A stretch of 63,649 nt of DNA, counting the filler, from Collodictyon triciliatum (Eukaryota): NCBI GenBank assembly GCA_043381765.1. It is 5 parts of 5 records of this genome, joined end to end, with 100 filler letters (N's around TTAATTAATTAA, not from the genome) between each part and the next. Parts side by side here need not be neighbours in the genome. Positions count along the whole stretch, not along the records: positions 22,609 to 43,801 come from JBHJMP010000705.1; 4 more parts are not named here. The stretch is one strand, 5' to 3'. How positions within the stretch are numbered: the first letter of the stretch is position 1; each line of letters begins with the position of its first letter. Below are positions 42,172-44,016 of this stretch, in pieces. Below the pieces are notes generated by a model. The model had not been told where the DNA came from. It was given only the letters and a program-made list of their open reading frames with translations, and made no database searches. The position numbers and the translations under genes were made by a program.

Positions 42172-43259
42172 AGAGGAATCTATTCATTGTCAATATAATT
42201 AGATTGGCTCATTCACCAAACCATCACAACTTTTACCAATGTTAGATTTTAACTAAGAGTTATGATGTGTTTATCATCACAGTGTTCAATAACTCAAATA
42301 TTGGAAATAAAGCGTGGGCATAAGTAGACCAGTAAATGAGTAGGTGATTATGTATGCATATATGGCTTGCTAGTATGCACACGAATGTTTGAATATGGAA
42401 TAATATTGTGATTTATAGAACAAAGATATATACACCGCGAAGACGGGCGCATCGCGACGCTCTGCGTTGACTTCATGTGCTACGTAATCCCTGTATGTTC
42501 AGTCTGAACGATAGCAAAAGAGAAACCCCGTTAGACATGATTAACACTTGTGATATATTTTCTAGCGGCATGTGTATATTTCGCGAATATCCTCTTCTTT
42601 TTTACATAAAAAAACGACTCAAAAGCTGGGCTATGTAAAACCAAGATTACGCCTCGTAACATATTGGTAGGGGGGATTATTCGGTTATTGCGTATTGTAC
42701 TATTTTCGCTTAGTTTTGCTATTCTTTCTTTTTGGCTTCCTTGTTTGGTTCATTCAGCTCATAAACATCCTTTAAAAAAAGAAAGAAAGAAAGAAAATAA
42801 TCGTAATGCCATAGAATACATGAAGCTTTCAACCCTGTCGGAAATACCTCCAGCTTGAAACAAAATGGCCCGGGAGGTTATTTTGTTGAATGGGTTTACA
42901 ATTATCACTGAATAAGTGAATTAAATAAAGAAAAACTCTTGTCGACCAACCTGAGCTTTTTTTTATTTTCTTTTTTAGTCATAGGAAACCATATCTTGTT
43001 CGATTTGCGTACCTCAGAATAGAAAAAAATACGGCAAGTCTTCCAGGGCGCCTCCAAGTATATGATCGGCCGTTCTTCCTTCTTCTTTCTTCCTTTTGCT
43101 GTTTGTTGTTGTGATCCTTTTTTTCTTTTCTGATTGATGACTGACCCAAGTTTGATTGGAAAATGAAAACAGAGGAATCGTTGTTCCACATTTGCTTTTC
43201 AAATAAGGCATGTGCAAAAAATTATTGTTTTTTTCTCTTTTCTTTTGCATAAAGGGGCA

Positions 43260-43367
43260 ACCAATTCTTTCGATTGGTAAACCAGGTGCGCTAGTATCCA
43301 AGGTCTCACCACCATTTTCACAAAGATTGTGTAGTGGTGAAGGCTGCCAGGAAAGACCCAACAGCCT
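43260..43367 (-). ncRNA. Candidate Fanzor omega-RNA scaffold (three stem-loops right after the Fanzor stop)
   Basis: Minus-strand RNA: AGGCUGUUGGG-UCUUU-CCUGGCAGCCU (43367-43341); UCACCACUA-CACAA-UCU-UUGUG-AAAA-UGGUGGUGA (43340-43306); ACCAAUC-GAAA-GAAUUGGU (43278-43260). The G-U wobbles and GAAA tetraloop work only on the Fanzor-sense strand. Confidence 0.55.
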
Positions 43368-43801
43368 ATTTTTTTTTAGAGAAAGGTGTATGCATATTTG
43401 GAAGGATTAAAACAACTTTCTTGAGTATATTTTTAGCGCTGATAAAGTCCCTTGTCAAGAATAAACTTTGTTTGCTTTCTGAGCGATTGCATTCCTTACA
43501 CATGAGACATATTTACACCTTTTTTATATTTCCTTTCAGTGTCATATATTCCAGTTCTTTTTCGCAGTTGCAACACATCTTGGAGGTTCTAAATTCATCT
43601 ACGCTAACTATTTCAAAACGTTTGGATAGTATTTTTCGTTACCCTCTTCCGATTGTTGGCGTAAAATGGTTCATCAGAGATTTTCTGCTCCAGTCTCCAT
43701 ACGCCAGTACAACATCCTTGCCAAATGTCTTTTCGATTCGGTCCGTAAACAACTGTTCACTTCTTTTTGTATTAACATATTGTCTCCATCTCATCTTTCG
43801 A
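43366..43801 (-). mobile_element. Fanzor1/TnpB-family RNA-guided nuclease, C-terminal RuvC/zinc-finger part, disrupted by two in-frame TAA; 5' part cut by scaffold end
   Basis: One uninterrupted-by-introns frame from 43800: RKMRWRQYVNTKRSEQLFTDRIEKTFGKDVVLAYGDWSRKSLMNHFTPTIGRG*RKILSKRFEIVSVDEFRTSKMCCNCEKELEYMTLKGNIKKV*ICLMCKECNRSESKQSLFLTRDFISAKNILKKVVLILPNMHTPFSKKK*. Motifs GDWS, PT.G.G, VDEFRTSK.C..C, C..C, RD..SA.NI. Confidence 0.88.
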
Positions 43802-43901
43802 NNNNNNNNNNNNNNNNNNNNNNNNNNNNNNNNNNNNNNNNNNNNTTAATTAATTAANNNNNNNNNNNNNNNNNNNNNNNNNNNNNNNNNNNNNNNNNNN
43901 N
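43802..43901. other. Artificial scaffold spacer
   Basis: TTAATTAATTAA at 43846-43857 between N runs. Confidence 0.95.
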
Positions 43902-43914
43902 AAAAACAAAAAAA

Positions 43915-44016
<102 letters not shown>

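Follow-up and report, generated by a model that had tools for sequence, protein, structure and literature searches.

A decayed Fanzor1 gene fragment of Collodictyon triciliatum and two hairpins at its 3' end that may be a relic of its omega-RNA

Background

Is the group of stem-loops at the 3' end of a Fanzor-like gene fragment in Collodictyon triciliatum the scaffold of an omega-RNA? An earlier note on this locus had described five pairings between 43367 and 43187, starting at the stop codon of a Fanzor ORF, and had read them as a single scaffold that lies directly downstream of the gene and is specific to its sense strand. Here we examine how much of this structure stands out from its surroundings, how it is placed relative to the nuclease gene and how it compares with the omega-RNAs of Fanzor1 systems. 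All positions refer to the window, i.e. the whole stretch of 63,649 nt from the NCBI GenBank assembly GCA_043381765.1 that was analysed; positions 22,609-43,801 come from the record JBHJMP010000705.1.

What such an RNA should look like is indicated by parts of two published studies. According to supplementary file 5 of Saito 2023 (PMC10432273), Fanzor1 omega-RNAs open with an SL1-type stem-loop located at the stop codon or immediately ahead of it. In the portion of Xu 2024 (PMC11423790) drawn on here, each of the three solved Fanzor1 complexes has an SL1 of seven base pairs, and this stem-loop is the conserved element in contact with the protein, while the rest of the scaffold is variable and poorly constrained. 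The lengths of Fanzor1 omega-RNAs given in these portions of the two studies range from 75 to approximately 150 nt.

Results and Discussion

General features of the window

The window is draft eukaryotic nuclear sequence with a G+C content of approximately 36% and 2368 N. Long exons in the standard code carry ordinary host domains identified by Pfam (PHO4, NHL, RING, ion channel, protein kinase and LRR). Four identical spacers, each composed of 44 N, a 12-nt linker with stops in all frames and another 44 N, are located at 22509-22608, 43802-43901, 54843-54942 and 59282-59381, and several plain runs of 100 N are also present. All of these look like artificial joins between contigs, so adjacent segments of the window are not necessarily neighbours in the genome. 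At 43902-44030, immediately past the second of the four spacers, more than 100 nt are taken up by a poly-T tract as read on the minus strand, and a long hexanucleotide repeat, whose translation is a repeated CCV, follows at approximately 44370-44490. ARAGORN and Rfam, the latter at gathering thresholds, agreed on a single RNA gene in the window, a tRNA-Leu (CAA) at 55633-55716 on the minus strand.

A Fanzor1 gene fragment

The C-terminal part of a TnpB-like nuclease gene directly adjoins one of the contig joins (Table 1). It retains the RuvC-II Glu (43596-43594), a CxxC...CxxC zinc finger and the RuvC-III Asp (43449-43447), and these catalytic and zinc-finger residues align with invariant columns of the family (E555 and D604; C562, C565, C587 and C590). 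The Pfam match to Cas12f1-like_TNB stayed below threshold, with an E value of 4e-4 and 20.9 bits against a cut-off of 26.3. Comparison with whole proteins was far more informative. Among 1.84 billion representative proteins, 1502 matched the fragment at E<=1e-3 and 332 at E<=1e-10, and the full-length ones are mostly 580-720 amino acids long. The closest intact homologue, a protein of 648 amino acids designated P0001, is 65-67% identical to the fragment (E 3e-56 in the protein search). When P0001 was compared with the window by tblastn, 102 of 158 positions were identical (E 8e-54) and the alignment covered residues 487-643 only. By sequence comparison the fragment is assigned to Fanzor1, because P0001, its close homologue, matches the solved Fanzor1 proteins GtFz1 (E 2e-28), PpFz1 (E 3e-24) and SpuFz1 (E 4e-23).

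Table 1. Features at the 3' end of the Fanzor1 pseudogene; positions are those of the window
Feature	Position	Strand	Evidence
Fanzor1-type (TnpB-like) nuclease pseudogene, C-terminal 144 codons	43369..43800	-	Pfam, tblastn, protein alignments
Contig-join spacer, removes the N-terminal ~486 codons	43802..43901	.	sequence; tblastn
TAG, probably a secondary nonsense codon	43366..43368	-	P0001 alignment: Gln or adjacent one-residue gap
Ancestral coding tail, 15 codons + TGA (43320-43318)	43318..43365	-	one-frame tblastn alignment to 43327
Stem-loop A (stem 1), 11 bp including 3 G-U, 5-nt loop; candidate SL1 equivalent	43341..43367	-	folding
Stem-loop B (stem 2), 9+5 bp, 4-nt bulge, 1 G-U; candidate SL2	43306..43340	-	folding
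GAAA-loop hairpin, weak, 6-7 bp, indistinguishable from chance	43260..43278	-	folding, shuffles
TGCAAAA and CACAT inverted pairs, weak, chance level on the minus strand	43187..43249	-	folding, repeat counts

The RuvC-I Asp and the WED/REC domains belong to the approximately 486 N-terminal residues that are cut off at the contig join. A tblastn search with five full-length relatives detected no N-terminal part of the gene elsewhere in the window, and no second copy of the element was found there either, the only matches being of low complexity. A close relative was likewise absent from the Fanzor table of Saito 2023 (PMC10432273), in which two of three peptide words occurred 0 times and the third in Phytophthora proteins only. 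In the table of Jiang 2023 (PMC10530073) two of three peptide words were present (15 and 13 times) and one was absent; the five matches listed were unrelated proteins of family 4 or unclassified ones.

One further family member deserves mention. P0011, a predicted protein of 136 amino acids from a contig of 582 nt, reads a frameshifted copy of the gene family to which the fragment belongs, and its N-terminal part matches another reading frame of the window at 43790-43700. This suggests that more decayed copies exist in this genome or in that of a close relative. P0118 likewise looks like a further copy of the family from the source genome.

Decay of the gene copy and its ancestral coding tail

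The gene copy is a truncated, dead pseudogene. In-frame TAA codons occur at 43641-43639 and 43515-43513, where the relatives possess Leu and Phe or Tyr, respectively, and at 43443-43441 Ile takes the place of the RuvC-III Asn (N606), which is almost invariant in the family. Counting the TAG listed in Table 1, the reading frame is broken by three nonsense codons. Given these codons, the Asn-to-Ile exchange and the loss of the N-terminus, the copy is not expected to function in cis.

Two other explanations of the stop codons were considered. An altered genetic code in which TAA and TAG specify residues was rejected because exons with Pfam domains in the standard code are found across the window; it is also disfavoured by the alignment of the stops with Leu, Phe/Tyr and Gln, each plausibly one base step away. 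Introns at the TAA codons were rejected as well, since the protein alignment is unbroken across both.

The earlier note had been right to speak of a Fanzor, and P0001 narrows this to Fanzor1, but its ORF is a fragment with two in-frame TAA codons that ends at a contig join. Its choice of the stop codon as the starting point of the structure needs a similar correction. A TAG does stand at 43368-43366 but it is probably a secondary nonsense codon and not the original stop, as judged from the alignment with P0001, whose frame runs 19 residues past this position. In the ancestral tail of the window that follows the TAG, 6 of 15 residues are identical to P0001. Because the tail continues in frame, the hairpins overlap the last ~16 ancestral codons. 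They are thus not located 3' of the ancestral ORF, although the structure had been placed downstream of the gene.

Two hairpins stand out from the candidate region

All five pairings described in the earlier note are present in the sequence. When each element was folded separately, the minus strand of stem 1 gave -16.5 kcal/mol as against -9.3 for its plus strand, and stem 2 gave -14.2 and -12.4 kcal/mol, respectively. The corresponding values were -4.4 and -4.8 kcal/mol for the GAAA hairpin, -4.8 and -2.9 for the TGCAAAA pair (43213-43249) and -2.9 and -7.2 for the CACAT pair (43187-43214). Strand specificity, which had been claimed for the structure as a whole, therefore holds for stem 1 and weakly for stem 2, but does not extend to the other three pairings.

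Stem-loop B abuts stem-loop A, and the ancestral TGA falls inside it. On the minus strand the 62-nt unit formed by the two (43367-43306) folded with -31.0 kcal/mol (z -5.41), and none of 200 dinucleotide shuffles was as stable; the plus strand gave -22.0 kcal/mol (z -3.99). Stems A and B together comprise 25 pairs on the sense strand, of which 4 are G-U, with zero mismatches. The advantage of ~9 kcal/mol on this strand arises because each of the four G-U pairs corresponds to an A-C mismatch on the plus strand. When 5944 windows of 100 nt from both strands were scanned, the two containing the 62-nt unit ranked 8th and 9th by GC-corrected energy, and the windows outranking them were mostly simple repeats.

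The comparison with dinucleotide shuffles, suggested in the earlier note as a check, came out in favour of the 62-nt unit but against everything beyond it. For the 119 nt at 43187-43305 the z value on the minus strand was +0.31, with 113 of 200 shuffles folding as well, while the plus strand gave a z value of -1.66. Perfect inverted repeats whose loops do not exceed 25 nt are frequent in the window, where they occur at 23.7 per kb with 5-bp arms and at 2.2 per kb with 7-bp arms. Hence the three downstream pairings, counted as scaffold parts in the earlier note, are at chance level on the minus strand. The real structural feature consists of stems 1 and 2 only, and the region 43305-43187 is without detectable signal.

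These figures bear directly on the reading in which all five elements (43367-43187) make up one omega-RNA scaffold of ~180 nt, with the right end of the element at 43180-43250 and the guide in the next 15-20 nt. We regard this as unlikely. A long scaffold would be possible in a relative of GtFz1, the omega-RNA of which, in the published material considered here, is ~150 nt long and has several stem-loops past SL1. Nor is weak structure past SL1 disqualifying, to go by the portion of Xu 2024 (PMC11423790) in which that region is described as poorly constrained. However, the downstream pairings do no better than shuffled sequence on the sense strand, the other strand folds better, and pairs of this kind abound in the window. 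Moreover, no evidence for a boundary was found in the window, which contains a single copy of the element with its left end missing.

Other kinds of content in the candidate region were also sought. No Rfam family was detected in 42500-43801 at permissive thresholds, no tRNA was found in the candidate region, and no Pfam domain matched any frame overlapping the segment. When the sense frame was read through its stops, residues 100-200 had no match in the set of 5.8 billion proteins. A stop-free frame of 130 codons that is distinct from the Fanzor frame (43406-43017, minus strand) spans the whole candidate region; it had no Pfam match and no homologue in the same 5.8-billion protein set, and it is probably due to chance. 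A Helitron-type 3' hairpin was rejected, the matching terminus being absent after the stems on inspection by eye.

Position and shape of stem 1 in comparison with distant loci

As a positive control we used three distant Fanzor1-like loci, L001-L003, which came from a scan of prokaryotic genome contigs with an alignment of 9 sequences. They are 25-31% identical to P0001 and are located on contigs of MAGs. At the 3' end of each gene, a few codons past the conserved C-terminal motif, lies a 7-bp stem that is closed by a 6-nt loop and preceded by a conserved lead of 5 nt (L001:553-590, L002:3231-3268, L003:1391-1428). Each of the seven pairs of the stem has changes in both partners, and pairing is found in 21 of 21 cells; 500 shuffles and the slid registers all fell far short of this covariation. 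Inspection by eye of the Fanzor1 omega-RNAs in supplementary file 5 of Saito 2023 (PMC10432273) reveals the same layout of lead, 7-bp stem and loop at their 5' ends. The MAGs that carry these loci are labelled as bacteria and have G+C contents of 18-48%, and the gene of L003 is frameshifted. The contigs may be eukaryotic or viral contamination.

The distance from the RuvC-III Asp codon to the start of SL1 is 83, 88 and 81 nt in L001, L002 and L003, respectively, and 79 nt from that codon to stem 1 in the window. The window and the comparison loci thus agree in the position of the stem-loop after RuvC-III and in the strand, the stem-loop of L001-L003 straddling or preceding the stop codon. Stem 1 has the location of a Fanzor1 omega-RNA start, being encoded by the sense strand where the gene ends and beginning at or shortly before the stop.

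In shape, however, the two differ. The motif of L001-L003 is absent from the window, and stem 1 consists of 11 bp with a 5-nt loop as compared with 7 bp and a 6-nt loop in these loci. Stem 1 also departs from the seven base pairs of the published SL1, a figure that rests on three structures. A covariance model built from L001-L003 (R1) had no hit in 42800-43801; its best match on the minus strand (E=3) was located elsewhere and was mismatched.

The tail peptide of P0001 offers an indirect look at the pairing in an intact relative. It can be back-translated in such a way that 11 of 11 pairs of stem 1 and 8 of the 11 determinable pairs of stem 2 are kept, a result that speaks for feasibility only. 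Among 400 randomised controls, in which the residues identical to those of the window were kept, 4 reached 11/11 and 14 reached at least 19 pairs. The test is biased, the 5' arm being so rich in G/U that most transitions are tolerated; by a count from the sequence this applies to 9 of the 10 transitions that are possible in the 3' arm. Since it proceeds from the peptide, it shows no more than that the stem is not refuted.

The C-termini of the protein family were also inspected. A Gly excess, which might have been a sign of an overlapping RNA, was not significant (9/120, p=0.10). Seven of 122 family tails (P0003, P0016, P0055, P0090, P0112, P0154 and P0155) bear G-[KQ]-S-V-x-F-[TA] at their extreme C-terminus and are otherwise variable. 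This sequence may be a motif of the protein itself or may have been imprinted by an RNA element that overlaps the gene.

Interpretation of the hairpins

The window contains the 3' end of a dead Fanzor1 copy. The most likely reading of stems A and B, for which in our judgement the chances are about even, is that they are a relic of the omega-RNA 5' module. The reading is based on the fold of the 62-nt unit, its bias towards the sense strand, the Fanzor1 gene itself, the SL1-like position and the overlap with the coding tail. The hairpins at 43367-43306 would then be the 5' module of the scaffold of the element, equivalent to SL1 and SL2. In an intact relative the sense strand would give rise to this RNA, with its start within the last ~16-20 codons of the nuclease gene, and its first stem-loop would be bound by the RuvC/TNB face of the nuclease. 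It would continue to the right end of the transposon, and ~15 nt of flanking DNA would serve as the guide. As omega-RNAs range from 75 to ~150 nt, the right end could equally be near 43290. No structure signal is present past 43305 on the minus strand, so a complete scaffold cannot be shown. The length of stem 1, the lack of an R1 match and the choice of the region post hoc beside the gene all count against its membership among omega-RNAs. What remains of the scaffold proposed in the earlier note is a pair of sense-strand hairpins at the SL1 position (79 as against 81-88 nt), and because the gene copy is a pseudogene they are at best a relic.

The hairpins could also be real and selected without being part of a scaffold, either as DNA-level subterminal palindromes for a transposase or as an element for the 3' end or the stability of the mRNA. 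In favour of this, either strand of the 62-nt unit is more stable than its own shuffles, and the rest of the element is missing. The surplus stability of the sense strand, which is owed to the G-U pairs, points to RNA rather than DNA, however, and a palindrome inside the ancestral coding tail would not be at the terminus of the element. The agreement in position with the covarying SL1 of L001-L003 argues against either version. Overall we think it improbable that the hairpins serve such a purpose.

Chance must be considered too, all the more so as the region was selected post hoc. The hairpins might be fortuitous palindromes in a decaying coding tail that were noticed for the sake of the adjoining Fanzor fragment, and about seven other windows of 100 nt score equally well or better, though most of them are simple repeats. 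The departure from the canonical shape of SL1 would be explained as well. Against this, no shuffle matched the unit, the start of stem 1 coincides with that of SL1 within a few nt, and the peptide of P0001 is compatible with the pairing. In addition, two perfect abutting helices with 25 bp in total have stayed free of mismatches while the adjoining 160 codons gained three nonsense codons. We therefore doubt that chance is the explanation. Three nonsense codons within ~160 codons point to a fair amount of neutral decay, which none of the 25 pairs has suffered.

This perfect pairing amid nonsense codons would fit continued selection on the RNA, but we hold it to be quite improbable that the guide-RNA module has outlived its nuclease and is still selected for use in trans by intact paralogs, in a subfamily whose SL1 has been extended to 11 bp.

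If the reading of stems A and B as an omega-RNA relic is confirmed, another Fanzor1 subfamily would have a candidate omega-RNA start, with an unusually long first stem, and the locus would be an example of a guide-RNA module that persists in a decayed copy. Its use would be modest: it would add to the catalogue of Fanzor guide RNAs and leave the general understanding of these systems unchanged. The locus is probably an ordinary relic of a known system, and the copy cannot work as an editor.

Comparison with known Fanzor1 systems

A guide-RNA module without a working nuclease in cis would have a precedent in the 'ghost loci' of Spizellomyces punctatus, which, in the published material considered here, are omega-RNA elements without a Fanzor gene. 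The ghost loci are, however, complete and short and possess both inverted repeats, whereas the window shows a broken 3' fragment only.

SpuFz1 of S. punctatus and PpFz1 of Parasitella parasitica belong to the same protein family as P0001. In the same published material their omega-RNAs consist of two hairpins followed by the guide, 75-90 nt in total, and a scaffold made up of stems A and B alone would fit this layout. They differ from the window in an SL1 of 7 bp with a 6-nt loop, and no similarity in sequence to the hairpins of the window was seen.

The best match of P0001 among the solved structures is GtFz1 of Guillardia theta (PDB 9cer, 9ces and 9cet; E value given above). For GtFz1 an RNA of ~150 nt, a TAM and cleavage have been demonstrated in the literature as far as covered here, whereas our locus is a truncated pseudogene known from its sequence alone. 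The SL1 of GtFz1 has 7 bp and a 7-nt loop in the published material, as opposed to the 11 bp and 5-nt loop of stem 1. The likenesses lie in the arrangement. Inspection of supplementary file 5 of Saito 2023 by eye shows that the omega-RNA of GtFz1 begins with two closely spaced hairpins and that the stop codon is in the second. That omega-RNA overlaps 17 C-terminal codons of its gene according to the part of Saito 2023 (PMC10432273) drawn on here, and the hairpins of the window overlap ~16 codons of the ancestral tail.
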